Assembly (NCBI GenBank): GCA_050250375.1
Contig: JBFWOS010000001.1
Coordinates: forward strand, 471,090-535,089
Direction of reading: 5' to 3'
Source: Candidatus Omnitrophota bacterium
GTDB lineage: Bacteria; Omnitrophota; Gorgyraeia; Zapsychrales; Zapsychraceae
DNA length: 64,000 nt
In this document: positions 3,101 to 62,638 of the stretch, piece by piece
Position numbering within the stretch: the first letter of the stretch is position 1
Layout of the letters: each line of letters starts with the position of its first letter
The notes under the pieces: generated by a model
Told to the model about the DNA's origin: nothing
Databases searched by the model: none
Seen by the model: only the letters and a program-made list of their open reading frames with translations
Made by a program: the position numbers and the translations under genes

Positions 3101-3321
3101 CCATTGCCACATACAGTTACACATCCTACGCTATCAAAACAAGCTGATTCAGCCATACATTCGACCCCTACCACAGCCTGCTCCAAACCATCTTCCACAT
3201 TACGTTGAAGCAACCCATTTTGCGATACGGCTACAACAATAACACTAATAATGCCCGCAAAAAGGACGACATATTCAATTGTTTGCTGACCAGCCCTAGT
3301 TATTAAATGTTTTAGCTTCAT
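190..3321 (-). CDS. Giant Flp/Tad-like pilin-domain protein with about 20 tandem cysteine-rich repeats (1043 aa)
   Basis: The N-terminus MKLKHLITRAG|QQTIEYVVLFAGIISVIVVAV has a basic leader, a Gly, then Glu at +5 and Tyr at +6, followed by a hydrophobic helix. This is the class III / Flp-type prepilin signature (compare G|xTAIEYGLIAxLIAV). The remainder is about 20 imperfect repeats of roughly 45 aa, each with 8 Cys, with the consensus TCAGxxCGxxxNNCGxxVxCPNTCxxPxxCxGNTCxCxPxP. Confidence 0.75.
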   Translation of the reverse strand: MKLKHLITRAGQQTIEYVVLFAGIISVIVVAVSQNGLLQRNVEDGLEQAVVGVECMAESACFDSVGCVTVCGNGCCEPGEAGICGADCGSCTPSVSCNPGECGNKNNGCGVLIYCGGCPVGQSCLPGNLCGCAPVNPCTVGACGVIDDGCGTPIDCGGCTAPQTCQSNVCTCVPEPIATTCAGAQCGVRLNNCGNSVACPNTCVAPAICTGSNCCTPNSPATTCAGVQCGLTLNNCGQAVTCPNTCVSPQICSGNTCAGCVPEPISVTCSGIACGPRTNNCGNTVTCPNTCASLVPPEVCTGNTCGGCIPNPIATTCAGVPCGNRLDNCGNIVTCPDTCPLQIPPQVCTGSACLNCTPDPIAVTCFNHECGPAANNCFQVVDCGSCIAPDQCVQGNSPGNLCVCPSDDISVTCLGIQCGYALDNCFDPVLCPDSCTPPNLDCVANACTCIPNPDSVTCASAQCGTVTNNCGIPVACPDTCVSPQVCSGTTCAGCAPDPIGVTCAGIACGPAVDNCGNNVICPNTCVSPAICTDNTCSNCVPESVASACAGLACGPTVNNCGQTVICPNTCTPLACVNNQCECIAQTPASTCSGVECGAVFNNCGNPVNCPDTCSPPNTACISNICFCAPEPASVTCAGVQCGVVTNNCNDPVTCPNTCSLPNACNGNTCSACIADPIQITCAGVPCGSVTNNCGNTVSCPNTCAPQACVGNGCAGCVPDQLNVTCAGKDCGTARDNCGNLTTCPNTCVLPETCQGNFCGCTPEPAATTCAGIQCGTVLNNCGFPVNCGNTCVTPPYTACIDNQCKCVAEPLNVTCSGIACGTAVNNCGNTVTCPFTCIAPNNNCSGNTCICTPDSLGATCAGVPCGPATNNCGNVVACPFACPPPMNSCSGNTCICVPDPIGVTCASIPCGNTTNNCGNVVSCPFTCTLPNNACSGNTCFCNPDPIGVTCSGIACGPATNNCGVTGTCPNTCGPDYMCSGNSCVPAPGTWVYTGSGGGALGGPGCPGTDPAVGTACLLTQGPCRYVVFVGPYSTPVYSNYDCQ
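441..3162 (-). repeat. Coding tandem repeat array (about 135-bp unit, about 20 diverged copies) encoding the 8-Cys module of the pilin-like protein
   Basis: The protein shows a periodic CG...NNCG..V.CP.TC motif. Spurious plus-strand ORFs (410..916, 1709..1939, 2375..2575) with similar periodic composition are antisense artifacts of the same repeats. Confidence 0.7.
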
Positions 3322-4013: not shown

Positions 4014-4213
4014 TTTATAAAGAAATCCCCTGTTAAAATTAAAGGAACACCTTCATTTGCGACGACTGACAAAATTTTCTTCCCATGCGCAAATGTAAAA
4101 GTGTTATCGTTTTTGAAAATTAAAGGAATGGCACAAAGAATAAAAAGATATGACACTGCGGCGAAGATTTTTCCATCGAGGATTTTTTTATCTTCAGCTG
4201 ATTTTTTGTTCAT
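4001..4213 (-). CDS. Small membrane protein, DUF4870-like
   Basis: 70 aa. AVSYLFILCAIPLIFKNDNTFTFAHGKKILS resembles the conserved core of the DUF4870 small membrane protein family (YLxILxxIPLL..KDDEFVKFHAKQ). It overlaps the downstream ORF by 13 nt. Confidence 0.45.
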   Translation of the reverse strand: MNKKSAEDKKILDGKIFAAVSYLFILCAIPLIFKNDNTFTFAHGKKILSVVANEGVPLILTGDFFIKCSL

Positions 4214-5444
4214 CCCCCGCCTTTACTTCAATAAGCGAGTTTATATCTCCAAAAGAATTGCGTTCTTTCCGGTTATTTTTTGGGTCTTCTTTCCAAACAC
4301 CATCGACGATAAACTGATATTTGTATAACCCTGGCTTAAGAGGTATTTCTGCTTCCCACTGACCGTCTTTTTCTCTCATGCGACAAGTATCATCAAGCGA
4401 CCAGTCATTAAAACTTCCAGTAACATATACTGATTTTGCCTCAGGCGCTTCGATAGAAAAGCAGATCGTCGTTAATCCGCTCATTTCTTGTTTGACAATT
4501 TCTTTCATTTGATCCGACATAGGCGCAAATGTGTCTTTTGCAGAAACCGGCTGTTCTTCCGTTGTTGGCTTCCCTTGTAAACTTTGCGTTTCTTCCACAA
4601 ATTCTTGAGAAAAGCGCTCCGTCGTCTTTGCAGTTTTTTTCTCGGCCTTCAGCTCAACAAAAACCTTTTCAAATTCCTGTTTATCCTGCTTATCCATCAA
4701 TATCAATTCTTTCGCCAAACTGAAATAATCTTTTGATCCTCGGCAATATTTATCATACGCAGAAACCGTTTTTCCCATGACGGCCGACTCTTTTAATTTC
4801 ACATTGATGTGAATAATCGTATCGAACATCATTTTCTCAAATCGCTCTTTGAAAGTGGCCAACATCGCAAAAGAATGCCTTAGCCGGGAGTCAAACATAG
4901 TTACTAAAACCTTGCATTTCACCTCATGGTTAAGCCTGTCTTTAACTAAGTTTACAATATCCATAAGGTGGTCTACCCCTTGCATCGAAAAACGGCTTGT
5001 TTCAACCGGGATGATCAACTCATCGCTGACACGAATCGCATTTACAGTTAAAATGCCGAGACTCGGGGGGCAGTCAATAATAACGTAATCATACATCCCG
5101 CGCAAAGGCTGAACAACTTCTTTTAACTTTAACTCTCGTCCGATTTCATCGGAAAGTTCCTGTTCCAGAGTCCCAACCAATACGTTGGAAGGCACAATAT
5201 CGAAGCTTTCTTCTACTCGCCGTATAATATTATCAATCCTCAATTTTCGGGGGGTAAGCTTAGAAATCACATTATAAATACTGTCCTGGCTTTCTATGTC
5301 CAATCCTAATGAAGCATGTGCCTGCGGGTCTAGATCTAATAGGAGCACTTTTTGCCCATTTTGACTCAAGGCTGAAGCCAAGTTGATAGCTGTTGTGGTC
5401 TTACCACAACCACCTTTTTGGTTTGCTATTGAAATTATTTTCAT
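4194..5444 (-). CDS. ParA/MinD-family P-loop ATPase fused to a C-terminal AMPK-beta/CBM48-type glycogen-binding domain
   Basis: The N-terminus MKIISIANQKGGCGKTTTAINLASALSQNGQKVLLLDLDPQAHAS carries the deviant Walker A (KGGxGKT) of ParA/Soj. After a charged linker (KQDKQEFEKVFVELKAEKK) the C-terminus reads TTICFSIEAPEAKSVYVTGSFNDWSLDD...GQWEAEIPLKPGLYKYQFIVDGVWKEDPKN...GDINSLIEV. This matches the AMPK-beta GBD / CBM48 consensus (VY..GSFN.WS....G.Y.YKF.VDG.W..DP). Confidence 0.75.
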   Translation of the reverse strand: MKIISIANQKGGCGKTTTAINLASALSQNGQKVLLLDLDPQAHASLGLDIESQDSIYNVISKLTPRKLRIDNIIRRVEESFDIVPSNVLVGTLEQELSDEIGRELKLKEVVQPLRGMYDYVIIDCPPSLGILTVNAIRVSDELIIPVETSRFSMQGVDHLMDIVNLVKDRLNHEVKCKVLVTMFDSRLRHSFAMLATFKERFEKMMFDTIIHINVKLKESAVMGKTVSAYDKYCRGSKDYFSLAKELILMDKQDKQEFEKVFVELKAEKKTAKTTERFSQEFVEETQSLQGKPTTEEQPVSAKDTFAPMSDQMKEIVKQEMSGLTTICFSIEAPEAKSVYVTGSFNDWSLDDTCRMREKDGQWEAEIPLKPGLYKYQFIVDGVWKEDPKNNRKERNSFGDINSLIEVKAGDEQKIS

Positions 5445-6356: not shown

Positions 6357-7715
6357 TTAGAACGCAACATTCATACTAACTAATGCTTGTTTTGCTGTTG
6401 AATTGTTTTCATTATCAAAAACACTTCCGGCAAAGAACCAGCCTATTGATGTTCCGATCGTAACATCTTCGGTGTAATCATAGGTCAGATCAAAATTAAT
6501 TTCTTTACCAAGGAAACTGCTGTCTGTTTTCGCTAACAATTCCTGAGTGCCACCTGTTGGCAATCGTGTTTCAATATCAGGTGATTTCAAGTCTCTCTCT
6601 AACCATATGGCAGTAAGTGCCAGCCGAGCGGTGACATCTTCCATCGGCTCAGCAGTAAAATAGAAAGAGTGAATAACTGAATTGGTCAGGTCAAACAAAG
6701 TATTGTAGATATGGCCTCCACCTTGCGCTTCATAGAACGGATCCCAACCAGTATAATCAGTATTGTTAACATCTGTATCGGTATCCCCTGTTGTTTTGGT
6801 GAAGATGTATTGAGCAACAGGCTTGTATTCTTCAAGAACAGGTAATTGGTAATTCACGATACCCTGAACAGCCCAGGCATCTCTTTTTCTGTTATCACCG
6901 GGGCCACCCACTCTATGGGTGCCACCTTGATGGGCAACTTCCGCTTGGAGATTCAACCCTTCAATCGGGTTTGTACTGGCACGGACGCCTGTAACTTTTA
7001 TCCAATTTGTCTTAGCGCCTGTAGCACTAACATTACCTGATTTATCGCGTTGCTTAAAGAAATACGCTTCAAGAACGGAATCCATGTCATCACCCAATTG
7101 ATAATTGGCGTTGACGCCCCACAGATCCTTGTCGTCATCCAAATGGTTAATCGTAACTGTATTTTGATCAATCTTCGCATAAAATACAGTCACGGTCAAC
7201 GGGTTGTAGTCAAAGATGGCACGGATCGCATCCAAAGATGTTTGTTTAGTCAAATCTTGCGCGATTGATCTGATACCTGAATCACCAGGAGCAACGTTGT
7301 TGGCTCCGGTTGCATCAAACACCAGACCATTCCCAAAAGAAAATACCTGACGACCGACGACTAAAGTCAACGGCGAATAAAGCATTTCTTTTAAGGTTAC
7401 ATAAGCAAGATAGATGTCTACTTCAGATGTTGATTCACTTTCACCACCATCAGCTCCCCATCCTCGTTCGCCGATAAGAGCGATCGTGACATAGACTTGG
7501 TCGGTCAAATCCGCATCGACTTGAAGACCGGTCTGATTGATAAAAACATCTTGGGTATCTGTTCCGCCTGATCCTTTACCAAGATCAAACTCTTGACGGT
7601 GTACAAACGTATTGTTTGTCCATCCGCCAATTTTTACGTTTTGAACGCTAGCAAATGCTGGAGCAGCTGTTGCCGCCATGGCCAATGCTACCGCTAATAC
7701 GATTAATTTTCTCAT
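6357..7715 (-). CDS. Outer-membrane beta-barrel protein (porin-like) with signal peptide
   Basis: Signal peptide MRKLIVLAVALAMAATAAPAFA. Alternating amphipathic beta-strand pattern throughout, and a C-terminal ...SMNVAF ending in Phe as in OMP beta-barrels. Confidence 0.55.
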   Translation of the reverse strand: MRKLIVLAVALAMAATAAPAFASVQNVKIGGWTNNTFVHRQEFDLGKGSGGTDTQDVFINQTGLQVDADLTDQVYVTIALIGERGWGADGGESESTSEVDIYLAYVTLKEMLYSPLTLVVGRQVFSFGNGLVFDATGANNVAPGDSGIRSIAQDLTKQTSLDAIRAIFDYNPLTVTVFYAKIDQNTVTINHLDDDKDLWGVNANYQLGDDMDSVLEAYFFKQRDKSGNVSATGAKTNWIKVTGVRASTNPIEGLNLQAEVAHQGGTHRVGGPGDNRKRDAWAVQGIVNYQLPVLEEYKPVAQYIFTKTTGDTDTDVNNTDYTGWDPFYEAQGGGHIYNTLFDLTNSVIHSFYFTAEPMEDVTARLALTAIWLERDLKSPDIETRLPTGGTQELLAKTDSSFLGKEINFDLTYDYTEDVTIGTSIGWFFAGSVFDNENNSTAKQALVSMNVAF

Positions 7716-12950: not shown

Positions 12951-15677
12951 TTATTTCTTTTTCTGGTTAGTCGTTTTACTGCTCCCGTTGGCTTCAATAG
13001 CCGCTTGCGCTGCCGCCAGCCGGGCAATCGGAACTCGATACGGCGAACAACTGACATAATTCAAACCGACACGGGCAAAGAATTTGACAGATTCCTGATC
13101 CCCGCCGTGTTCACCGCAAACTCCGCACTTCAGGTCTTTACGAATCGACCGTCCTCTTTCAACACCGGTCTGAACAAGTTGGCCAACGCCTTCTTGATCA
13201 ATCGATGCAAACGGATCATCCTGAAGTATTTTCTTTTGTAAATATTCAGGCAAGAAAGTACCGATATCATCCCGACTGAAACCGAATGTCATTTGCGTCA
13301 AATCATTGGTTCCAAAAGAAAAGAATTCGGCATCTTTAGCCACTTTATCAGCGATCAAAGTCGCACGCGGAATTTCCATCATTGTTCCAACAAGGTATTT
13401 GATCTTTGAATTTTTCATCTTAATAATTTCATCTGCCGTCTTTCGTGTTATTTCCGCCAGCATTTGAAATTCTTTATCTGTTCCGATCAAAGGTATCATA
13501 ATTTCAGGAATAACTTTGACTCCTTTTTGAGCGACATTACAAGCGGCTTCAATAATGGCCGTAACCTGCATCCGGCAAATTTCCGGATAAGTGATCGATA
13601 ATCGGCACCCCCTGTGTCCTAACATAGGATTAAATTCATGCAGTGCCTCGACCTTATGTTTGACTATGGCCGGAGTCGTATTTAATCTCTTTGCCATTTC
13701 TGCCTGTCCGACCTTATCATGCGGTAAGAACTCGTGCAATGGCGGATCTAATAATCGGATGGTGACCGGGTGGCCATCCATGGCTTTAAAAATCCCTTCG
13801 AAATCTTTTCTCTGATAAGGCAATAATTTGGCCAAGGCTTTTTCTCGACCGGCAATGTCTGATGCTAAAATCATTTCCCGAATAGCCCAAATACGGTCCC
13901 CTTCAAAGAACATATGTTCTGTTCGGCACAATCCGATACCCTCAGCCCCTAATTTCCGGGCATTCAGGGAATCCTTTGGCGAATCCGCGTTGGTTCGTAT
14001 GTCCAATTGTCGATATTTATCCGTCCAACTCATAATTTCGGAATACATCTTGCAAATCGGGTGATTGAGGGCTTTCTTGTCTCCATCAACAATGCCTGAA
14101 ACAACAGGTGACGCTGACGTTTCGACATATCCAACGATAATTTCCCCCGTACTACCATCGATGGAGATTTCGTCCCCTTCGCGCACAATACGAGACCCCA
14201 CGGAGATTAGTTTTTTCTTATAATCAATCTGTAAAGCCCCACATCCAACGACACAACACTTTCCCCATCCACGAGCGACAACAGCGGCATGAGATGTCAT
14301 CCCGCCGGTTGAGGTCAGGATTGCCTGCGCGGCCCACATCCCGCTGACATCTTCCGGAGATGTCTCTTTTCGGACAAGGATTACTTTCTCCCCTTTGGCC
14401 GCCCATTTTACCGCTTCATCGGCGGAAAAAACAACCAAGCCACTGGCTGCACCAGGACCTGCTGGGAGACCTTTAGCCAATAATCGATTTTCCGTTAAGG
14501 CGGATTGTTTGGCTTTAGGATTAAAAATCGGGAATAACAGCTGGTTCAATTGATCCCCATGAATTCGTTTTAAAGCCGTTTTTTCATCAATTAATCCTTC
14601 TTTAACCATATCCACTGCGATTTTAATCGCAGCCAGACCTGTCCGTTTACCATTTCTGGTTTGAAGCATAAACAGCTTACCTTCCTGAATGGTAAATTCA
14701 ACGTCCTGCATATCTTTATAATGCCTTTCCAGCATCAACCGAATTTTATTAAGTTCTTCATAAATCACCGGCATCTTTTTCTTAAGTGTGGAAATCGGTT
14801 CTGGCGTCCGAATTCCAGCCACAACGTCTTCACCCTGGGCATTGATCAAATATTCCCCGTAAAATTCATCAGTACCGTCAGCAGGATTGCGGGTAAAGGC
14901 TACTCCTGTACCCGAACTGTCCCCCATATTTCCATAAGCCATGGCCTGTACGTTTACGGCGGTACCTTTTAATCCGCGCAATTTATTAATGTCGCGGTAT
15001 GCAATGGCTCTATCAGCGTTCCAGGAACGGATAACAGCGTTAATAGAATGGGTTAATTGTTCCCGGGCATTTGTCGGAAAATCTTTACCAACATACTTTT
15101 TGTAAACCGCTTTATAGGCGCCTACAACTTCTTTTAACTCAGCGGCCGTTAAATCTGTATCCAACGCTCTGTTATATTTTTTCTTAATGCGGGTTAGCTC
15201 TTCTTCAAAATGATCATGATGGACTTCCATACAAACGTCCCCGAACATGTTGATGAATCTTCGGTAAGAATCCCACGCCATACGTTCATTATTTGTTTTC
15301 TTTGCGAGACCAATGACGGCCTCATCATTAATCCCGAGATTAAGGACTGTATCCATCATGCCGGGCATTGATACCGCTGCCCCGGAACGCACAGAAACCA
15401 AAAGCGGGTTTTCGGCGTCTCCAAACTTTGCATTCATGGCCTTTTCAAGTTTCTTGATATTTGCATCAATTTCTTTATCGAGAGTGTCCGGCTTTTTCTG
15501 ACCATTGGAGTAATAATAATCACAAACCGTCGTCGCAATCGTAAATCCAGGCGGAACAGGAACACCGATTGATGACATTTCCGCCAAATTCGCCCCTTTA
15601 CCACCTAATTCCTCTTTCATACTTGCCTTGCCTTCGGCTGTTCCGTTACCGAAGAAATACACATACTTCTTTGACAT
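12951..15677 (-). CDS. ppdK: Pyruvate, phosphate dikinase
   Basis: 908 aa. N-terminus MSKKYVYFFG.....GGKGANLAEM. Motifs VRSGAAVSMPGMMDTVLNLG, phosphohistidine GGMTSHAAVVARGWGKCCVVGC, and C-terminal GIGLCRTEHMFFEGDRI / FFSFGTNDLTQMTFGFSRDD. Confidence 0.9.
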   Translation of the reverse strand: MSKKYVYFFGNGTAEGKASMKEELGGKGANLAEMSSIGVPVPPGFTIATTVCDYYYSNGQKKPDTLDKEIDANIKKLEKAMNAKFGDAENPLLVSVRSGAAVSMPGMMDTVLNLGINDEAVIGLAKKTNNERMAWDSYRRFINMFGDVCMEVHHDHFEEELTRIKKKYNRALDTDLTAAELKEVVGAYKAVYKKYVGKDFPTNAREQLTHSINAVIRSWNADRAIAYRDINKLRGLKGTAVNVQAMAYGNMGDSSGTGVAFTRNPADGTDEFYGEYLINAQGEDVVAGIRTPEPISTLKKKMPVIYEELNKIRLMLERHYKDMQDVEFTIQEGKLFMLQTRNGKRTGLAAIKIAVDMVKEGLIDEKTALKRIHGDQLNQLLFPIFNPKAKQSALTENRLLAKGLPAGPGAASGLVVFSADEAVKWAAKGEKVILVRKETSPEDVSGMWAAQAILTSTGGMTSHAAVVARGWGKCCVVGCGALQIDYKKKLISVGSRIVREGDEISIDGSTGEIIVGYVETSASPVVSGIVDGDKKALNHPICKMYSEIMSWTDKYRQLDIRTNADSPKDSLNARKLGAEGIGLCRTEHMFFEGDRIWAIREMILASDIAGREKALAKLLPYQRKDFEGIFKAMDGHPVTIRLLDPPLHEFLPHDKVGQAEMAKRLNTTPAIVKHKVEALHEFNPMLGHRGCRLSITYPEICRMQVTAIIEAACNVAQKGVKVIPEIMIPLIGTDKEFQMLAEITRKTADEIIKMKNSKIKYLVGTMMEIPRATLIADKVAKDAEFFSFGTNDLTQMTFGFSRDDIGTFLPEYLQKKILQDDPFASIDQEGVGQLVQTGVERGRSIRKDLKCGVCGEHGGDQESVKFFARVGLNYVSCSPYRVPIARLAAAQAAIEANGSSKTTNQKKK

Positions 15678-41678: not shown

Positions 41679-41854
41679 GTCTTTCCTTTCTTAGATCCAA
41701 TGAGTTGTAAATTATTATTTCTGAAATGTTTAGAGTTGAATATCAACAATGCACCTAACATTAAACTAAGCTGGAGTGTGATTAAAGTAATAATATAGTC
41801 ATTTTGGCTGGAATTGTCAAGAACGAAAAATCGAAAAGATTAATTGTCAACTGA

Positions 41855-41894
41855 ATAGATCAGCTTAGTTCACAATCGAACTAAGCTGATCTAT
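41855..41894. repeat. Perfect 17-bp inverted repeat (ATAGATCAGCTTAGTTC-acaatc-GAACTAAGCTGATCTAT) spanning the stop codon of the giant gene
   Basis: Read directly from the sequence. The giant ORF's TAA stop (41865..41867) lies inside the left arm. A partial copy (AACTAAGCTGGAG) occurs at about 41763. Confidence 0.8.
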
Positions 41895-44800
41895 TTCTCG
41901 TTTTGCTTTCCTATCTCTTGGATTTAGGGAATCGTAACTGATGGTGTTTGATTCATCTTCAGTCGTGTCTGAAAACCCTAACAACAAAGGCAAGCTGTTA
42001 ATCGGGGTTACATTTATTATAACCGGAATTAATCCGTTAATATTTATTGTATTAATCGAACCATTAAATTTTGGAAAAATAAGCGATCCATCCCCTTTTC
42101 TTTCAATCTCAAACAAATTTGGGTCAAGATCAATACCCCCAAGTTCTTTTTTATTCGCTGTCATGGCGGCATCACTCACACCGATGGCTTCTCGATTAAC
42201 ATTTGCTATCGCAGGATAATTGATTCCGGACGGATCGGCTTGATAAGTCAGCGCCACTAACGCCCCGCTTAACTGGTCATCCGGATAAATGTTCCAAAGT
42301 CCTAACAACTTTCCGGCCGCAAGTATTACGTAAGCCCGATCCCTCCCGGCGACTGTCTCCAACGCGCCAAAGGATAGACCGCTTTCAAGGTTTATCTTCC
42401 GTTCTTTAAGCAGAGATTCCCGTAATGCTCTGATGCCTTCCGTAAACTCAGCGCGATGGGCAAGAACATATTCTTTATTTAAACTCAATAGGATTACTTC
42501 TTCCTTCTCCCACTGAAATGACTCACCTTCACCGGGATTTGCTATTGCATCTTCGAGCAACATAACAAAATCCTCGGATAACATGGATTGATCTTGCTTC
42601 ACAGCTTGGTCGTAATCTATCGTTTGAATTACAACATTCCGTTCTGCTGCGGCTCTTTTAATCATTGCAATTGGTCTTCGCAAATTGGGCATTACTTTTT
42701 CTTTTGTGTAAAAATCAATAACTCTGGGATTCTTATATAAATCAGCAGATAAATAAGCTTGCGCAAGTTTTCTTTCATCTAATGTGACAAAAGATAATCC
42801 TTTATCCAAAAACTGTTCTAAGAATAAATAATTTCCTGGCCAAGCGGTATTCATCCCCACTTGAGAATCTATTTCAATGCCCACTCTAGTAATAACATCT
42901 AACGCTTTTTCTATTGTTTCTGGAACTTTTACACTGTTCAGTTGAATTGCGATATTGTACCCATCGTTCATTAATTCCGAAACTACTTCCATTTCCAATT
43001 GAAACAATTGTTTCCACTTTGCATCATTGACCAAAGCATCTAGGCCGGAATACCCTAAAGCAGGGTTAACTTCTTCCGACAAAAAGGCTTCATGGTTGTC
43101 TAAAGCATCTAGATCGTCCGATTGAAGATCAAAAGTTTCATAAACCAGCCTGGATTGCCGGTCCTTTATCTCAGTTAATATTTTCTCCTTTAATAACTTT
43201 TTGAGTGTTTCTTTTCTCGCTTGAGAATTCTCGCCTACAAAATAACTTAACGGATGAACGCCCTGTTCTTTATGAAAATTGGACGAACTGAAGCGCTGGT
43301 TAAAATTGACAGAAATTGTATCCACACTTTCTTCCATAACTTCAATTTCACTGGCAAGATCTACGACATTAACTCTAACATCCTGGCGGTCTCGGAAAAT
43401 TATCCCGCTGTTAAAATCAATGGTTAATAAGTCACCATCTTTTTTTCTACGCTCCATTCTTTTCGTCACCTCAACTTGCGTTCGAATGACGGGCACCCCT
43501 AATTGTTCAATGGCCGCGATATATTTCTCCTGACCATGAAAATGCTCGACCGCCCCATAAATAACTGCTCCTAACCGGCTAAGTTTTTCACGCACACCTT
43601 CATCGGCCACTTGATAATTTACGACCACTTTACCATCAACTACGTGAGATGATTCTTTTAATTCAAATTTTAATTCACCGGTTAACACAACAAAATCCCC
43701 GATATAACTTTTCCCTAATTCGGTCACACCGTTCACCATGTAAACAGGCCGGGTCGCTGCACCTTTTGACACTGTTGATGAAAATTGTTCACCTATGGCA
43801 AAATTTACAGCCCCTTCCTCTAATTCAACCGGGCTGTCCACGACTCCATGTTTTAATGTAGCACTTGCGGATCGTATAATTGACGCCAAAGTCCCCAAAT
43901 AATCTGTCCCGGCGTACCCTCCCGTCTGACCTAACATTATAAGGATTGTTTCCGCCGCTTCCGGATTGATATTAACCAAATTGACTAACGCCTGCCCGCA
44001 GAGCCCGCATTTCGCTTCCGCTTCTTTAGCGATGTTGGCCACATGTCGAATTGACTCGATAACAAATGGATGCGCTTCACTGAATAAGTAACGCATCGCC
44101 GGATTATCACGGTCAGCTCCCAAGGTCAACTGGGTCAAATCATTCGTCCCGAAAGAGAGAAAACTCTTTCGATAAATTGTTTTGCCAAATTCCCGAACAA
44201 ACCAATCCTTTTGGTTCTGTTCATGGTCTTTTAGTACCTGGATAAACTCATCGGCCTGAATGACGTTACTGGGTAATTCCGTCATTTGCCCGACCTCACG
44301 CAAATTAACAACACGTCCCAACTGTTTGCTCATATTACGTTCTTCTTCATCCAGAATATTCATCAATTGGTCCAACTCTCCCGGAGTAGAAACAAACGGA
44401 AAGAAAAACCCTATATTGTTATACCCACGGACAACCTGCCTGAGAATCATCCTGATTTCTTCGCGTAAAATTATTTCATTCTCCGGCTGAAGCAGCCAGC
44501 GAGCTCCGCGTTCACCAATCATAGTGGAGACTTCCGGGACCGGGTCGAAAATTATAGACCCGATCAATTCTCGTGCTTCGTTCTTCTTGAAATCTATACT
44601 CCGATACAAGACAGTATTGTCATCAACATTATTGGCTGCCGCCATGCTGGCAATTGCACCCCCATGAACCGCTTCAAAAAATTCATTATATGATAAATAC
44701 CCCAACATTTGTTTCGTTGCCGCTTCAATCTCGCCGGAATGCTCACGAATTAGTTCGACATCTTTCTGTTCATATTCCCCCAAGCTCTCGAGAAATGCTC

Positions 44801-47800
44801 GTGCATTGGTGTCTTCAAACTCTTTAATTTTTAATTCGGATTCATCAAAAAGAACTTCTACCCCCGAATCCCTTAATTTTGAACGTGAAGTAAGGTGTGC
44901 CCTGAATTTTTCCAAAGCCGCCCTCTCTGCGTCACTTAACCCTTTATTATACCGTCGTGCCGGAGGATTATCTTTCTTCGTTCTAAGGTAATGGTAAACG
45001 AGAAGATTGTCATACGCCCGCCCGAAACGCGGGTTAATATTTTCCTCTGCGTAGGCAAATTCTCCCCGCATCAAAGCGACACCTGAAAAACCTTTATATT
45101 GGGAAATCTTGGACATGGCCAACATAGGGTGCGGCATTCCCATAATATATCCGATCCGAGTATAAATCTCAGGGAGCCTGTCCAGATTGATTTCAATATC
45201 ACGTTTGCTGATGGGCAATTCACCAGCATAAACCATACCAAAACCTGTCTTTTCATTGGCGTTGGCATCTACTGTAACGACATTACCGGTCGTGTTAATG
45301 TAATTGATAATCTTTGTCGCTTCTTCAACTCCAACTTCAGACTCAAGTTTATTGACCCAGGTTTGGATACCGACGACGGTCGCAATTCCAAGCTCCCTGG
45401 ACATGACTGCGGCGTGTGACGTGGCTCCGCCCACATCGGCAATAACTCCCATGACATTCTTGGTTTGCAACACTGCGTTATAATCCGGCGTTGTTTCCCT
45501 GGTCCGGATAATAATCTTTTCACCACTTAACGCCAAAGCTTTAATTTCTTCAAATTGAGAGGGCAAACTTTTATCTTCAGTGATCCTGTATATTATTCCT
45601 GAAAAACTGTTTCTTGTCGCTATCCCCTGGGCAACCAGCTGACCTAAAATCAAACCGGTCTCTTTGCCACTATCGTCCAATACCGGATCCTTCTTTTTCT
45701 GAATTGATTCAAGATCTTTTTCTTTAACATAGGTATAACTGATTTTAATTCTATTTGCTTCTTTCACATCACCATGCACATTCGACGGCCTGCGCTGTAC
45801 AGTTACCGCTGTATTGTCTCGGCCAAAATTTCGCCCGATCGCACCTTCCATGTCGACCAAATGCCCATAACCTTCTGCCTTTTTCATAAATTCTTTTGCA
45901 ATGGCGATTACCTGACTCTCCGTCACGGAAAATGAATTTCTCTTTTCTTCGGAAACGTCCGTAAACATCGTCTTAATTTCTCTATCTTTGAGTCTTGCTT
46001 TCAAAAGATGTATTAACAACTTAACTTCTTCTTGGCTATACGTGAATGACTCCAAATCTTCTTTACTTATTTCATTAATTGTACTATCAACAGTCAACTT
46101 CACTAACCGTTGAAGAACATTGTAAATCTGATCGTTCTCCACGCCATTTTTAACGCCAACTAATGGGCCGGAAACATTTCCTGTTTCTAGTAAGATTAAA
46201 TATCTTTCGAAAGACTCATCGGAAAGCCCAAGGCGTTCGTAAACCGGAAACGTGTATACAGCCTGCACCGTTTTTGTCCCAAGCTGTCTGTTTAATATGT
46301 TGACATGTTGCCCGGTCTCATCCTCGAAAATATGAACCAGGAAAGAATCAGGAGTCGTTACCCCCTGGACGATAGATTCTCCGATTCCATAATTCGTTGT
46401 AATTGTAGCCACCCGCCCTCTGTTTGAATATTGCTCTTTCGGTATACCCTGAAACCCAAGAGCAGTCCACTCACTGGCAATATCATGCCCCATAATGACA
46501 AAAGAACTATCAACCCCGGCCATAGGCATAACAGTCACACCCATGGCAATGTTTTCAACATCAAGATAAAACTTCCGATTCTTACTCACTATTCCTGCCT
46601 CATGAGAAAAACCATTTCTTAGTAATGCATCGCGCAATTTGACGGACGTAACGATATTAAAATTGTGGTCTCGCAGCGCCTCTCCCACCAATAAATCTAC
46701 GGCATTGGAACTCTGATTCAATTTTTCAATAATTTCTGCCGCCCGTTCTTTTTCAGTAAGGATTTCATCAAAAGACACGATAACCATCAATGTATCTCTG
46801 TATTTCAGTACTTGTTCCGTATACAAAGATGAAATATCATCCCTCCAGCGTCTAACCGTAGCCTCTTCTCCCCCCTCTCCTAAATAACTGTCATGCTGTC
46901 CGGCATTGGACCCAACATTTACATTGGTCAGTACTTTAAACGCATACGCGTTATCTTCTGCTTTTCCTGAACTCCGGATGGCAACTAATTCTTGGCTCGT
47001 AAGATTAACTAACTCTGTATAAGCCTCACGCAGATCTTTTTGAATGTCCTCGGGAATATCATAACTCACAACTAACTTACGAATCTGCTCTTCTGCCTGC
47101 ACGCGCCCAAAATCATCGGCAACATCTAAATTATCAAGGATAGCATCAATTTGCGGCAAAAGATCCGGATGGAATTTCATAAATTTTGTTGATGCCGTGG
47201 TCGTTCCACCGAAACTGCGCAAATTGTTGTTCGGATCATCCGACCAATAAACACCTTGCTGGTATGTCTTCCCACCGACTAGTTCTTTTCCTCTGACTTC
47301 ATCAAGAATGGAAGATTCGTAATCCCACACTACGTTTTTCTGGAGAAGGTCTTGATAATACCGGTCAAGAAAACGCCCAACCGCTTGTTTAATTACCTCA
47401 TCTAACCGATTATCAACTAGTTCTTTTTCAATTTTCTCGGCTTTCGTTTCTCCCGTCTCAACCGCCAAATCATAATTTTGTGGCTGACCGTCATAAACAT
47501 CACTGGCCATCATGTAAGCCACAAATTCTCGAAGCAATAAATAATCCAGCATTTGTTCATCACCGGATACTTTTAAATCCTGAATTAATCCCGCTCCGAT
47601 ATAAATGGTTTTATTACTCAAACCAACATGGGCCACTTGATATTGATCAGATTTTCGCATGACCAAAGCAGGTGAGCCATTTTTCAAATCCTCAACCGCA
47701 ACAATCTGTATCCCTTCAAGTAAACTTCCCAAACGAGTTATATCAACCCCATTATTCGCTAATACAACTTTTACCCTAGAATCATTCAATATGGCTCTGA

Positions 47801-50267
47801 TATTACTTTTTCGATCAATCGTCTGTGTTTTGCCCGCATCAAAGGCATTCTTGATCCACCGATTAACACTAAAAAAGCGATTATCTTCCTCTTCGATATC
47901 ACGATGCGGGATTAATCCTAATTTTTTAGCCAAGTTCGCAGTTCTCATTTCGGATAAATCATTTTTGGCCAACATAGCTGTATCAGACGTTGAATCTTCT
48001 TCGTTAATAACTGTATATTTACTCCAAGATAGGCTATATCCCGCGACGAACTGTTCGAGAGGATTCGTAAAGACATTTTCATACGCACGGTCAACCAACT
48101 CTTCCCTTACTTCCAGAAACGGATCTTCGGTTTTGCTGGTTTTGGCCAGTTCCGGAATGATTCTGGACTGGACGTAACTTTGAATTTGCGTGATAAACGG
48201 CTTATAATCGCTTCGCTCTAAGGACACCTGGTTATAATCCACCTGTACCTGGCCCGTTAAGATAGAGCCAAAGCCGGCTTCGTCTAAAGCAGCATAAATA
48301 TCATCCTGGGTATTTGAAGTCGGGAAGGCTGATCGTTTCTTTTCACGAATCTCGGCAGTACCGTACTGATCCATATAATGCGTACGAACAGAATCATATT
48401 TTGAATCCATCGCGATCAAATTCATAACTTCCATGCCAACAAAATCGAATAATTGATGGACTCCAACAGCATTCTCGGGCAAAAGCGTTAAACCTTGAAT
48501 ATCGCCACTCCCCATCGTCAATGTTGCCCCGGGGTTCATGATGTCTTTGATACCTTTGAATGTGCGAACCAATTGGCTTTTGGGAATAAGATGCACAGCA
48601 TTTTCCATCATGATATGATCAGCTTTTAAATCCGGAATGTCCGAAACCGAAGCAAAGACTGGTGTTCCGGCAGAATCAATATCTGTTTGGGGAAGGATAT
48701 AAAATTCAATTTCATTAACGACATCGTCAAATTGTTGATATAGCGCGGCCCGGGCGTACTCCATATAAGCCCGTGATTGGCCATAGCCGACATCCGCTAA
48801 AACCAGTTTCTTAATTCGTTTACCTTCTTCCCTCAATCGGTTTAACAAATAGATTGAAGCGCCACCGGTGCCGGCCGATACATCCAGAACCACATCCTCG
48901 CCGGTAACACGGATGGATTGGACCACACTCTCCAGATCAAACGCCAAATTAGTTTGATACCAGTTCGCCTTGACCACCTTCTCACCATAAATGTATGCTC
49001 CACTTCCTACTCTGAATTTACCTTGATCCGGTTCAAGTCTTTCGACAAAAACATGATCATCCTCTATAACCCTGGCTTCTCCCGTCATGGCATTATCAAG
49101 CCTGACCGTCACATTTCGATTACCTGTTTCACTTAATTGGGTTAATTGTCTTGGAGTCAAATCGTTATGGGAAAAGATTGATTGATCAGGCGTATGGGTA
49201 AAGTCCCCTCCCCCGGAGAAATATTGTCGGGGAATCGCTTGTTGGGTGACGGGATCATAGTCTTCCTTTATGTAATTATAAACACCTTTCTTAAATGATT
49301 CGACATACTGATCATAAATCTTTTGATTTAAACTTTTATCTTGGGTTTCAATCCCGGCAGTCTTATTCCGATCGACATAGGCCTGGCCTATTAAACTTTC
49401 CTGCAAATTTTCTTTATACCAATTGGCAAGGATTACGGCATTATATATTTGACGAAGCTGGCTGAATGTTTTTCCCTGATTGATTTCTTTTTCAATCTCG
49501 GGGATCAAAACTTCCCGCACAACATCCAAAGATACTCCCGTTATAACATCAGCATCTTCCGCCGTCTGCCCATGCTTACCCACCGCTTGATTATTTTCGA
49601 GAGCAAGATAATCTTCCTCTAACAATACTTTTAGTTTACTTTCAACAATAACAGCGCTGTTCCCCTGTTCAAAAACAACGGCCTTTTCTGGAACAATCCA
49701 GATCTTATTAAATGTATTCATTGGTATTTCCGTAGTACCGAATTTCTCATAGGCCAACTGATGAACTTTCTTCCAGAATTCTTTACCGGTTTCATCTTCC
49801 GGATACATCATGGATGAAGTTAATTGCTTCAACATGTAATCTTGAGCTAAAAGATCAAGACCCATTTGAGTTTTACCAAAACTTTCCGGAACCATCCGAT
49901 TTTCTTCAAAAGGGGATAAATTAACCCAAAGTTCATTTTCGGGGATTGTTAAAGAGGCAAGAAAATATTTTATGAGCCGGTTGGATTCTTGCTGAAACTG
50001 ACTGTCATTAAGATTTTCTTCTCCCGGATTTATAATAAAACTCATCTGCAACGGATCGTTAGGATGGATCGTAATTCCTTTAATGATTGGCGGTGTATAT
50101 ATTCCAGTCGGGACAACCAAAGTGCCTGGAACGGGCAAGTTCATCGCATTCGCCTGAAACACTTGCGCATAGGAGGGGGGAATCACTGAAGTCACACCAA
50201 ACGCAGTTAAAATAAAACTATTGATGATTTTGCAAATCAGACCGTTTTTAAAATTGGAAAAACTCAT
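41865..50267 (-). CDS. Giant (2800 aa) multidomain protein with predicted signal peptide, class I SAM-methyltransferase motif, and an embedded PEP-synthase/PPDK-like module (PPDK_N ATP-grasp, phosphohistidine swivel, PEP-utilizers TIM barrel)
   Basis: One uninterrupted ORF. The N-terminus is [35 protein letters not shown]. Motifs, by aa position: approx 460, [17 protein letters not shown] (MTase motif I); approx 1095, [17 protein letters not shown] (PEP synthase VAVRSSATAED signature); approx 1612, [21 protein letters not shown] (swivel His); approx 1730, [11 protein letters not shown] and approx 2037, [20 protein letters not shown] (TIM-barrel motifs; compare ppdK in this window [20 protein letters not shown]). 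Confidence 0.85.
   Translation of the reverse strand: [2800 protein letters not shown]
43368..43700 (-). other. Second, degenerate PEP-utilizers swivel-like segment (aa approx 2190-2300)
   Basis: [35 protein letters not shown]...[14 protein letters not shown] parallels G.V.E.GG.TSHAAI.ARE.GIP.VVG....DGD.V.VDG..G.V, with the catalytic His region altered. Confidence 0.4.
43908..47270 (-). other. PEP synthase/PPDK-like catalytic module of the giant protein (aa approx 1000-2120: ATP-grasp, swivel His domain, TIM barrel)
   Basis: The order and motifs match PPDK/PEPS. See the CDS entry for the motifs. Confidence 0.7.
48468..48950 (-). other. Class I SAM-dependent methyltransferase-like domain of the giant protein (aa approx 440-600)
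   Basis: A Gly-rich motif I, [9 protein letters not shown], followed by an acidic residue at the end of beta-2 (LVLADVG). Confidence 0.5.
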
Positions 50268-50532
50268 GAATTACACCCCTTTTTTCTTTAATCGTTTCAA
50301 TCAGGATATCTTTAAAAATAAAATTACCGCCTGAGACAAAAAAAATCAGACAGAATCAAAAAATATTTGATCTGAAACTAAAGTTTTGAAATGTAATTCT
50401 GAATTGATTGGGGAATGTTGTCTTTTTTAAAGACAAAATTAGTATACTATATTAATTTAATTAGTCAATGGGAATTACTATGACTTACCCGGACAGCTGT
50501 TAGCTCTAATTTAAAAAAGTTATTTTTCTCAT

Positions 50533-61762: not shown

Positions 61763-62638
61763 TTAGAGGATTAATTGGATTCGGGTAACGACAACGACCG
61801 GATACATATAAGCGTCCTTCGGAACATCTTTTATATATCCTTCAATCTTTACTTTATAATTAATGAAAGGATTAAGCAGTTGGCTAAAACCGTCAAGATA
61901 ATAAATCTTTTCAGAATCGTTGTTCAGTAAATACTGGAAACCACTATCTTTAGTGTTCTTATTTGCGGTTAAGATTCCCTGAAATGATGTCGGTGAAACT
62001 TCGGGAATTAATTCTTCAGGTTCAGGAGTTGTTTCCGCCGTTTCCTCAAGTGCAGCTTCAAACAAATCTTGCTCTACCTCTCCAGGTATATACTTACTTA
62101 CATCACTAGAGACAAAGTCGATTAAGTCTTCTGATATCCACCCATAACTGCCTTTAACCGGTTGGATCTTATACCAGCTGTCCAACTGATTTAATATGAG
62201 AATTCTATCCCCTTTATTGACTTGACCCAAAACCGTAAAATTAATACCAGCTCCCGCACGTATATTGACCCTATTGGAGGTTATTTCCCCCACTTCATGA
62301 TTGATCATTGTTACGAACTCGTTGCTGATAAAACTATTGGCGTGTTGAGGCAGACGAATTTTATACCAACTATAACTCTTGTCCTCAACAACGACATTCT
62401 GATCCAGATTCAATCGGCCCAAACTCTCAAAACTTTTACTCTGGCCTGCCCGGATATGCACGGATTTCTCTTTAATTTTTCCTAAGAAAGGGAAGAAATC
62501 CTGTTGAGCCGAAACGCCTGAATTGATTAATAGGAAGAATAGAACCAGAGATGTGATTCTGAAGTTCATATTACGCGGGAGATGATAAAGTGCAACACCT
62601 GAAAGATTACTTTTTTGCAGGGGCCTTCTCTTTCTCAT
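61763..62638 (-). CDS. Secreted protein with two bacterial SH3 (SH3b) domains
   Basis: Signal peptide. Then KSYSWYKIRLPQHANSFISNEFV and LDSWYKIQPVKGSYGWISEDLI (SH3_3-type motifs). Confidence 0.6.
   Translation of the reverse strand: MRKRRPLQKSNLSGVALYHLPRNMNFRITSLVLFFLLINSGVSAQQDFFPFLGKIKEKSVHIRAGQSKSFESLGRLNLDQNVVVEDKSYSWYKIRLPQHANSFISNEFVTMINHEVGEITSNRVNIRAGAGINFTVLGQVNKGDRILILNQLDSWYKIQPVKGSYGWISEDLIDFVSSDVSKYIPGEVEQDLFEAALEETAETTPEPEELIPEVSPTSFQGILTANKNTKDSGFQYLLNNDSEKIYYLDGFSQLLNPFINYKVKIEGYIKDVPKDAYMYPVVVVTRIQLIL

Follow-up and report, generated by a model that had tools for sequence, protein, structure and literature searches.

The window analysed here is a 64,000-nucleotide stretch of the genome of a Candidatus Omnitrophota bacterium (NCBI GenBank assembly GCA_050250375.1, contig JBFWOS010000001.1, positions 471,090 to 535,089 of the forward strand), and all coordinates below refer to it. 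On its minus strand lies a gene of 8.4 kb whose product combines a predicted signal peptide with a phosphoenolpyruvate (PEP) synthase-type unit and carries two sequence caps, an N-terminal domain and a short C-terminal motif. This giant protein is not a one-off: it is a member of a very large, almost Omnitrophota-only family with shared caps and swappable cargo. The main parts of the gene are as follows (aa, amino acid residues).

41865..50267, minus strand: whole gene, a continuous open reading frame (ORF) of 2800 codons plus stop, its own transcription unit.
50166..50267, minus strand: Sec/signal peptidase I (SPase I) signal peptide, aa 1-34, with predicted cleavage after SYA and before Q.
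49200..50165, minus strand: N-terminal cap domain, aa 35-356, family-defining, ~320 aa.
45708..47312, minus strand: ATP-grasp (nucleotide-binding) domain of the PEP-synthase unit with large insertions, aa 986-1520, assigned from Pfam PPDK_N and the 2OLS alignment.
45198..45545, minus strand: swivel phospho-histidine domain, aa 1575-1690, with the catalytic His1618 in GGATSHAAV, assigned from Pfam PEP-utilizers.
43848..45170, minus strand: PEP/pyruvate-binding triosephosphate isomerase (TIM) barrel, aa 1700-2140, with GERGA at 1918, ELPSN at 1996, GTNDLTQ at 2039 and KCGLCGQA at 2086.
41973..42143, minus strand: C-terminal motif, aa 2709-2765 (~57 aa), GGIDLxP...G(F/L)xPVIINxTPxxxLPLLLG.

An initial annotation of the window had proposed, from short motif strings, a full ATP-grasp, swivel and TIM-barrel unit in canonical order, and both the strings and the order hold. 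The strings are all present in the protein, including the PEP synthase signature at 1096-1105, GGATSHAAV at 1613-1621 and FGTNDLTQ at 2039-2046. Pfam places PPDK_N at 995-1339 (1e-33), PEP-utilizers at 1584-1669 (6e-14) and PEP-utilizers_C up to 2093 (1e-39), so that the motif matches in this unit are not spurious. The NCBIfam PEP synthase model NF005057 matches with 2.6e-94 and 316.8 bits (equivalog cut-off 598) and TIGR01418 with 285.2 bits (equivalog cut-off 739.75), while the pyruvate phosphate dikinase (PPDK) model TIGR01828 gives 55.7 against a cut-off of 843, well short of a PPDK equivalog match. PEP synthase models outscore those for PPDK, enzyme I, rifampicin phosphotransferase and PigC by far. 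Aligned to the Neisseria PEP synthase 2OLS, the unit forms five collinear blocks in which His1618, the Arg of GERGA, the Glu of ELPSN, the Asn-Asp of GTNDLTQ and the Cys of CGLCGQ all have counterparts; swivel His and barrel residues are thus kept relative to PEP synthase. Its greater length (~1190 aa compared with ~790 in PEP synthase) includes ~300 extra residues in four insertions. In an alignment of nine sequences, the query and eight orthologues with 46-64% identity, every PEP-synthase catalytic motif is identical in at least seven, and the ATP-grasp motifs VGGK, RSSGxAED, AGQHD, GESIVQG, DMEG and VQRRPSN are kept in the orthologues.

The residues of the PEP/pyruvate site match those of PEP synthase, which argues for ordinary pyruvate/PEP chemistry. 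Moreover, the catalytic motifs are kept in this unit and lost in a second barrel of the same chain (see below), which points to selection for activity in the first. Judged by its sequence, the PEP-synthase unit is catalytically intact and apparently active. As had been proposed, it is not the housekeeping enzyme: a leaderless, canonical ppdK of 908 aa with all three domains lies at 12951..15677, ~26 kb from the giant gene. The paradox seen in the initial annotation, an ATP- and PEP-dependent enzyme behind a signal peptide, is therefore real, with a genuine-looking leader and intact phosphotransfer machinery.

On inspection of sequence features, residues 1-34 show the layout of a Sec/SPase I signal peptide, namely a positive n-region (K7 and K13), a hydrophobic core at 11-29 (Kyte-Doolittle 1.78), a helix-breaking PP and small residues at -3 and -1 in SYA before Q. 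Leader statistics were obtained from 192 family members starting with Met. Their n-regions contain on average 3.7 K/R as opposed to 0.4 D/E, the median Kyte-Doolittle value of the hydrophobic core is 2.5, and 180 of the 192 have Ala at -1 and Gln at +1. Among these 180, a Pro is found between -7 and -3 in 179, and A, S, V or G at -3 in 161. Gln at +1 is a hallmark of SPase I substrates in Bacteroidetes (PMC5837995). Hydropathy of the whole protein reveals a single hydrophobic stretch besides the leader, the proline-containing C-terminal motif. As there is no second span able to return the chain, all of it should be found on a single side, predicted from the distribution of charges to be the outer side of the membrane. 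The earlier call of a Sec-type leader is supported by this layout and by its conservation; by its appearance the leader is a genuine signal for export, made to be cleaved, and not an anchor, and export of the giant protein is well supported by these predictions.

A further, independent indication comes from cysteine. The giant protein has three cysteines in 2800 aa, one in the leader and the other two, Cys2087 and Cys2090, in the catalytic CGLCGQ. The mature protein (2766 aa) retains 2 Cys; at 1.01% Cys, the baseline given by the other ORFs of the window without the Cys-rich ORF 190..3321, a count of at most two would arise by chance with a probability of 3e-10. Across the family (224 proteins, 420,116 residues), Cys accounts for 0.079% of residues and for 0.047% after residue 35, compared with 1.01% (Fisher p=1e-123), a depletion of ~20-fold, and 101 of the 176 long members lack it entirely. 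The leaderless PPDK of the same window has 13. In 11 relatives checked residue by residue, most Cys lie in catalytic motifs (GAPDH SCTTN, PEPS/PPDK CG, TIM CCGE), and the few elsewhere include some pairs spaced 2-5 residues apart. Low Cys with only closely spaced pairs is the pattern of type 5 secretion passengers that cross the outer membrane unfolded (PMC8151025). The near-total loss of Cys together with the retention of catalytic Cys argues for export and for retained catalysis: the family seems to remove almost every Cys that its enzymes do not need, which argues that catalysis is under selection.

Other proteins of the window mark the range of Cys content. The cytoplasmic enzymes contain 1-2.7% Cys, and two leader-bearing proteins, an Alginate_exp-type beta-barrel (6357..7715, minus strand) and a protein with predicted cleavage between Ala and Gln (61763..62638, minus strand), also have no cysteine. 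The opposite extreme from the giant protein is ORF 190..3321 (minus strand), 1043 aa with 172 Cys (16.5%) and no Pfam match. It has a type IV pilin-like class III leader, MKLKHLITRAG followed after the cleavage point by QQTIEYVVLFAGIISVIVVAV, and ~25 tandem repeats of ~37-40 aa with the form C.P.P...TCAG..CG...NNCGN.V.CPNTC..P..C.GNTC.

Homology searches show how the giant protein is related to its family. With the whole protein, 1,494 matches were obtained; beyond ten orthologues, hundreds of proteins of 1,500-4,800 aa cover only 11-15% of the query. The parts common to paralogues are residues 1 to ~355 (47-62% identity) and ~2705-2770 (33-53%), and everything between differs. A search with just the cap matched 8,002 clusters (50% identity), of which 6,158 reach E<=1e-30. 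In the best 150 of the 8,002 matching clusters, residues 1-356 are 50-65% identical, and in each of these 150 listed matches the cap begins within ~75 residues of the N-terminus. It contains the motifs LNLPxPG, NPLxFDF, KYFLAxLT, WVNLSPYE, MGRDLLAQDYxLKQ, NTFNKxWI, LKVMLEEDY, IPEIExEVNxG, LRQIY and RKYFSGG, and 56 positions are invariant in a 30-sequence alignment. The C-terminal motif, which contains the second hydrophobic stretch of the protein with its several prolines, is present in 106 of 120 listed relatives at 33-53% identity. The giant protein thus has the leader with the cap motifs as well as the C-terminal motif with near-absence of cysteine.

Residues 1-400 have no Pfam or NCBIfam match even at E=10, the cap profile finds no match among PDB sequences, and the last 131 aa have no NCBIfam match, including the type IX C-terminal domain (CTD) models TIGR04183 and TIGR04131; searched in isolation, neither the N-terminal cap nor the C-terminal region matched a Pfam or NCBIfam model. 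The initial annotation had left an N-terminal stretch of ~400 aa unassigned. This stands in so far as Pfam, NCBIfam and the PDB hold no relative, but at least 8,000 clusters contain this stretch, which is the domain that defines the family, and the N- and C-terminal regions are both common to one large, almost Omnitrophota-only family.

Family members are 1,500-5,300 aa long and have a signal peptide only. We counted at least 577 cap loci in species-representative genomes. They are labelled Omnitrophota or 'uncultured Planctomycetales', except for two labelled 'bacterium' (L025, L039) and one Elulimicrobium locus (L065, DYOU01000027.1), Candidatus Elulimicrobium being placed in the Patescibacteria group in the NCBI taxonomy. 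Either the Planctomycetales and Elulimicrobium labels are taxonomic errors, or the family occurs, if rarely, beyond Omnitrophota. Within the 80 listed loci, single metagenome-assembled genomes (MAGs) hold at least six family copies, and at 18 of the 80 the next gene upstream, in the same orientation, is also a family member, forming head-to-tail arrays such as L029/L062 and L047/L051. A paralogue from the same genome (P0103, on a 1.2-Mb contig record shared with the identical protein P0001 described below) has a cap that is 53% identical, no closer than those of paralogues from other genomes. This suggests that the caps are old and constrained rather than homogenised.

Between the caps, 84 of 109 listed paralogues carry cargo that Pfam recognises. 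By our count, 52 of these 84 contain enzymes of glycolysis, gluconeogenesis, the glyoxylate shunt or glycogen metabolism: phosphoglucose isomerase (PGI), phosphoglucomutase (PGM), UDP-glucose pyrophosphorylase (UGPase), phosphoglycerate kinase (PGK), glyceraldehyde-3-phosphate dehydrogenase (GAPDH), triosephosphate isomerase, aldolases, enolase, PEP synthase (PEPS) or PPDK, PEP carboxykinase (PEPCK), isocitrate lyase, malate synthase and glycogen synthase. Some cargo scores above curated equivalog cut-offs (PGI 678 compared with 492, class I aldolase 288 compared with 277). Two proteins from other MAGs, P0018 (4729 aa) and P0029 (4793 aa), carry PEPS, GAPDH, TIM, PGK and enolase on one capped chain, and P0029 has a class II aldolase as well according to precomputed Pfam domains. 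Most of lower glycolysis is thus strung on one leader-bearing, almost cysteine-free chain. Many other paralogues have HEAT repeats or no recognisable domain.

The gene itself is intact and starts at M1. A protein with 100% identity, P0001, is encoded on a contig of the NCBI Omnitrophota MAG GCA_050181705.1. It was annotated by NCBI from M42 (2759 aa), which leaves out the signal peptide (window 50145..50267), and with the leader removed the automated annotation gives a plain 'PEP-binding protein'. Paralogues of the 2800-aa protein align from residues 1-10, so M1 is taken as the real start, and this choice over M42 is also supported by two upstream features.

50274..50282, minus strand: ribosome-binding site, AAAGGGGTG, with GGGGTG, 6 nt before the ATG at 50267.
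50441..50468, minus strand: sigma-70-like promoter, TTGACT-16-TATACT, a match to the consensus, between the groEL terminator and the gene.

A terminator hairpin follows the groEL stop codon, and then comes this promoter-like site. At the other end, a palindrome with a 19-bp stem (41853..41896) extends across the stop codon of the giant gene and is probably a bidirectional terminator; it is followed by the promoter-like site of an IMPDH-like gene (TTGACA-17-TATATT, 41820-41792). The orthologues P0002-P0010 are collinear with the giant protein, share 46-64% identity with it and come from independent assemblies and species. One of them, P0003 (58% identity), is present on at least 24 contigs and has the same neighbourhood, uvrB-coaX-groES-groEL-[gene]-IMPDH-guaA-dnaE. 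Collinear orthologues in independent assemblies and this shared neighbourhood indicate that the gene is neither an assembly artefact nor the passenger of a mobile island.

Besides the parts already described, the protein contains the following modules and motifs.

49086..49097, minus strand: DxAM junction motif 1, DNAM, aa 391-394, between the N-terminal cap and the next module.
47958..49010, minus strand: Rossmann/class I methyltransferase-like module, aa 420-770, motif I at 461-469, marginal profile matches.
47973..47984, minus strand: DxAM junction motif 2, DTAM, aa 762-765, at a module junction.
47313..47957, minus strand: module X, aa 771-985, which precedes the ATP-grasp domain in orthologues that span the region.
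43263..43775, minus strand: segment aa 2165-2335, earlier called a second swivel, conserved among orthologues.
42588..43262, minus strand: degenerate second PEP-synthase-type TIM barrel, aa 2336-2560, assigned with NCBIfam and hhalign.
42168..42587, minus strand: spacer module Y, aa 2561-2700, common to a few paralogues.
42162..42173, minus strand: DxAM junction motif 3, DAAM, aa 2699-2702, at a module junction and overlapping module Y.
41868..41972, minus strand: variable charged C-terminal tail, aa 2766-2800.

Residues 420-770 are a probable Rossmann/methyltransferase-like module by sequence. The string LDVSAGTGG, on which the initial annotation had based a methyltransferase domain, is indeed present at 461-469, but homology is marginal. 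In Pfam, DUF938 (0.002), Methyltransf_12 (0.016), FtsJ (0.017) and Methyltransf_25 (0.018) all remain below their gathering scores, and in the PDB the PksCT C-methyltransferase matches with E 0.03-0.07; it is always motif I that is covered. With a profile of four orthologues, the match to the PksCT methyltransferase is weak (E=0.034), and further motif-like strings are kept. The module is found in P0002, P0005 and P0011 and is absent from the close orthologues P0003 and P0004. Module X has no Pfam match. The string that had suggested a second swivel is present in the segment 2165-2335, but the segment does not match the true swivel (hhalign probability 1.5%).

The region that follows this segment holds the second barrel, which the initial annotation had missed. 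Self-BLAST of the tail against the PEP-synthase unit gave a weak hint, which was then confirmed with NF005057 over residues ~2370-2545 (E=2.2e-12) and with hhalign against the first barrel (89%, E=2.4e-6). Its catalytic residues are replaced, with LGYSGL for GERGA, TAWPGN for ELPSN and TLDERKL for GTNDL. A double barrel also occurs in other PEP-synthase-type cargo (P0097, P0016). It may be speculated that the dead barrel supplies in cis the barrel-barrel contact by which PEP-utilising enzymes normally dimerise. The motif D-x-A-M-(L/T/I/V)-(A/S/T/G) is 8-fold enriched in the family, with 398 occurrences observed and 48 expected in P0002-P0224. The giant protein has exactly three DxAM sites (391, 762, 2699), each at a position where paralogues swap modules, and the motif may be a linker signature or a processing site. 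A universal processing site was rejected, as the motif is absent from 51 of 135 long members and one site of P0018 lies inside a swivel domain.

Elsewhere in the window, ORF 4194..5444 (minus strand) encodes a ParA/MinD-type ATPase (AAA_31, 2e-55) fused to a C-terminal glycogen-binding module (AMPK1_CBM/CBM48/CBM53). This fusion might position glycogen granules.

Among known systems, the best profile match is to PEP synthase (PpsA; 2OLS, 8A8E; NF005057/TIGR01418), which has the same three domains in the same order, the GG-x-T-S-H histidine, the Arg/Glu/Asn-Asp site for PEP and Mg, and the CGQ cysteine. The giant protein differs from it in scoring below the equivalog cut-offs, in the longer unit and the degenerate second barrel, in being a 2800-aa chain with a signal peptide and two mature cysteines, and in occurring in a genome with a separate leaderless PPDK. 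In its overall architecture, the family rather resembles the TpsA exoproteins of two-partner secretion (TPS, type Vb; for example FHA, HMW1 and CdiA), which likewise have a Sec leader, a conserved N-terminal domain of ~250-350 aa and variable giant passengers, with variable functional modules downstream and, in some of them, a short C-terminal anchoring element. Also like the family, TpsA proteins have very low Cys, with any pairs closely spaced (PMC8151025). The passengers of TpsA proteins are adhesins or toxins, those of the family metabolic enzymes.

In Chlamydia, secreted glycogen synthase and phosphoglucomutase handle host carbon outside the bacterial cell (PMC4829429, PMC3722199, PMC9251005). 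Its GlgA, GlgB, GlgP and CT295 are a precedent from the Planctomycetes-Verrucomicrobia-Chlamydiae (PVC) group, in which a bacterium that depends on other cells places sugar-phosphate and carbon-storage enzymes beyond its own cytoplasm, and PGM, glycogen synthase, UGPase and phosphorylase are frequent cargo of the Omnitrophota family. The chlamydial enzymes are of normal size and use type III secretion without a Sec leader or shared caps, whereas the Omnitrophota proteins are giant, modular, massively paralogous and, by prediction, Sec-dependent. In the giants of the same phylum termed 'Archaeovorins' or 'multi-enzyme metabolic cluster', signal peptides or transmembrane segments likewise precede metabolic Pfam domains, among them PPDK_N, PGM and starch synthase; they differ in comprising 10,000-147,000 aa with many transmembrane helices, as opposed to the 1,500-5,300 aa and sole signal peptide of the capped family. 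In MARTX toxins, conserved N- and C-terminal regions flank exchangeable effector cassettes, with type I secretion and no Sec leader, and type IX cargo combines a Sec leader with a conserved C-terminal sorting element of 70-100 aa. Both are architectural analogies only, without homology; the type IX CTD is a beta-sandwich, in contrast to the predicted coil of the C-terminal motif.

Taken together, we give roughly even odds to the explanation that the giant protein is a Sec-exported modular enzyme carrier, resembling a TPS passenger, that acts on prey- or host-derived metabolites. Predation, parasitism and episymbiosis have been proposed as lifestyles of Omnitrophota (PMC10066038, PMC12583861). 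The chain would cross the inner membrane unfolded via Sec, and the leader would be removed between A34 and Q35. The cap and the C-terminal motif would be the handles that all members offer to the same partner, be it a translocator of the outer membrane or a structure for anchoring. In this they would compare with the TPS domain and C-terminal anchor of TPS exoproteins by functional analogy and not by homology. The PEP-synthase unit would then be at work beyond the cytoplasm of its producer, on the surface or within a prey or host cell, and interconvert pyruvate + ATP and PEP + AMP + Pi on substrates derived from the prey or host. Sister capped proteins with glycolytic, gluconeogenic and glycogen enzymes would work alongside. 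Export as such is well supported; we infer the cleavage between A34 and Q35, the passage beyond the periplasm and the final destination, as well as the use of the caps as handles, the direction in which the enzyme runs and its physiological role.

Several observations weigh against this carrier model. To our knowledge, there is no ATP, AMP or PEP pool outside the bacterial cytoplasm, so that the substrates would have to come from a prey or host cell or its lysate. Some paralogue cargo (response-regulator receiver, GGDEF, RelA/SpoT, DnaJ) is sensible only inside a living cell. Neither sequence searches of Pfam, NCBIfam and the PDB nor fold comparison with its AlphaFold2 (AF2) model link the cap to TPS domains or to anything else. 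In particular, Pfam detects no TPS domain (PF05860, a beta-helix with NPNL/NPNGI) in it, and the AF2 model, of only moderate confidence (predicted local distance difference test, pLDDT, 66), is mixed alpha/beta rather than a beta-helix and matches no known fold. The C-terminal region is modelled by AF2 as coil without an independent fold (predicted template modelling score, pTM, 0.23). In the 2 kb upstream of the 80 loci, the recurrent neighbours besides family members are scattered biosynthetic genes (2-5 loci), none of them a transporter or a TpsB (Omp85-type) gene, and no secretion partner was found there. Lastly, Cys depletion reflects selection against Cys and does not specify which extracytoplasmic compartment is reached.

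Some of these points would fit a protein that is exported via Sec and stays in the possibly enlarged periplasm of a PVC diderm, where the caps tether it to the envelope and imported metabolites are used. The chain has a signal peptide and no membrane spans after it, Cys depletion would suit any site outside the cytoplasm, nothing in the C-terminal motif is recognisable as a secretion domain, the surroundings of the 80 loci revealed no secretion partner for the outer membrane, and the beta-barrel of outer-membrane type encoded in the window implies that a periplasm exists. We nevertheless consider periplasmic residence unlikely, since the periplasm is established to lack ATP and nucleotide pools, receiver, GGDEF and DnaJ cargo has no known periplasmic role, and isolated or closely spaced Cys are the pattern of passengers that cross the outer membrane unfolded (PMC8151025). 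Somewhat less likely again is a metabolon on the cytoplasmic side, in which the hydrophobic N-terminus stays uncleaved and serves as an anchor or an assembly helix, while the caps build a membrane-tethered multi-enzyme complex. Such a scaffold would explain why all cargo is of cytoplasmic type, requiring ATP, NAD or UTP, why the enzymes look active by sequence, and why P0018 and P0029 string together most of lower glycolysis, as expected for substrate channelling; the upper-glycolysis steps that appear to be missing in many genomes according to the 2026 preprint (10.64898/2026.06.07.730766) could also hide in such fusions. This possibility, a cytoplasmic giant with an anchor, was already raised in the initial annotation. 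It is disfavoured by the positive n-region and the uncharged region after the hydrophobic core, which predict N-in and C-out with no second span to reverse it, by the conserved pattern of Pro and Ala-Gln, which would be purposeless in an anchor, and by the 20-fold Cys depletion, as cytoplasmic proteins of the window, the leaderless PPDK among them, have 1%.

The function suggested at that stage, phosphorylation or methylation of a macromolecular target at the surface or in the host, with the swivel His serving a non-pyruvate substrate as in rifampicin phosphotransferase or PigC, is improbable in light of the present data. Weak NCBIfam matches to rifamycin phosphotransferase and PigC/RedH do occur over the ATP-grasp and swivel domains, a methyltransferase-like module is present, and a different substrate could be bound by module X, by the insertions or by the degenerate barrel. 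Yet no feature of the protein indicates that proteins or surfaces are its phosphorylation targets, the order of ATP-grasp, swivel and TIM barrel is that of PEP synthase and not of rifampicin phosphotransferase, the PEP/pyruvate-site residues are intact and conserved, PEP synthase scores 317 bits compared with at most 65 for any alternative, and the methyltransferase call is marginal for a module missing from close orthologues. Even less probable appears a structural or adhesive coat protein in which enzyme folds are reused as surface-layer blocks or binding modules and catalysis plays no part. In other bacteria, glycolytic enzymes exposed on the surface serve as adhesins, and many paralogues have HEAT repeats or lack a recognisable domain. 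Giant Omnitrophota proteins have been proposed as coat or attachment factors (PMC10066038). A coat protein would hardly account for catalytic residues kept in the giant protein and its paralogues, including the Cys otherwise avoided by the family, and the second TIM barrel shows what relaxed selection looks like in the same chain. A frameshift or assembly join of separate genes, finally, is effectively refuted: the ORF is continuous as first described, the architecture is collinear across P0002-P0010 and their independent assemblies, P0003 recurs on its many contigs, base composition is uniform over the 2800 codons and the same as in the surrounding window, and there is a single leader and a single C-terminal motif, as in all other family members.

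Very long Omnitrophota proteins with PPDK and other metabolic domains behind signal peptides have been reported before and noted as a puzzle (10.1101/2023.11.21.568195; 10.64898/2026.06.07.730766). Term searches of these two preprints revealed no description of shared caps, and the word 'cysteine' is absent from the 2026 preprint; a full-text search with the sequence strings of the cap and the C-terminal motif found no paper. Long secreted multi-enzyme proteins of Omnitrophota are known, and the family signature of caps plus Cys depletion is, as far as these searches reach, undescribed. With a cap in at least 8,000 clusters and no relative in Pfam, NCBIfam or the PDB, the family offers a target for structural and secretion studies, and Cys depletion with catalytic Cys kept may serve as a simple sequence marker for exported enzymes elsewhere.

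Reaching beyond the single protein, and held more tentatively than the carrier model, is the possibility that Omnitrophota, as ultra-small predators or episymbionts, export an active toolkit of glycolysis, gluconeogenesis, the glyoxylate shunt, glycogen metabolism and nucleotide kinases through a so far unrecognised secretion-handle system of cap and C-terminal motif, and run this metabolism on or in their prey or host. PEP-synthase carriers would in that case convert the PEP/AMP or pyruvate/ATP pools of the prey for the benefit of the predator. If the proteins are exported and active, the reduced metabolism of Omnitrophota would have to be read differently, and genome-based pathway reconstructions would be counting enzymes with no work to do inside the cell. 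If the toolkit exists, it would be a second and far larger case, after Chlamydia, of a PVC bacterium placing carbon-metabolism enzymes in the compartment of its host.

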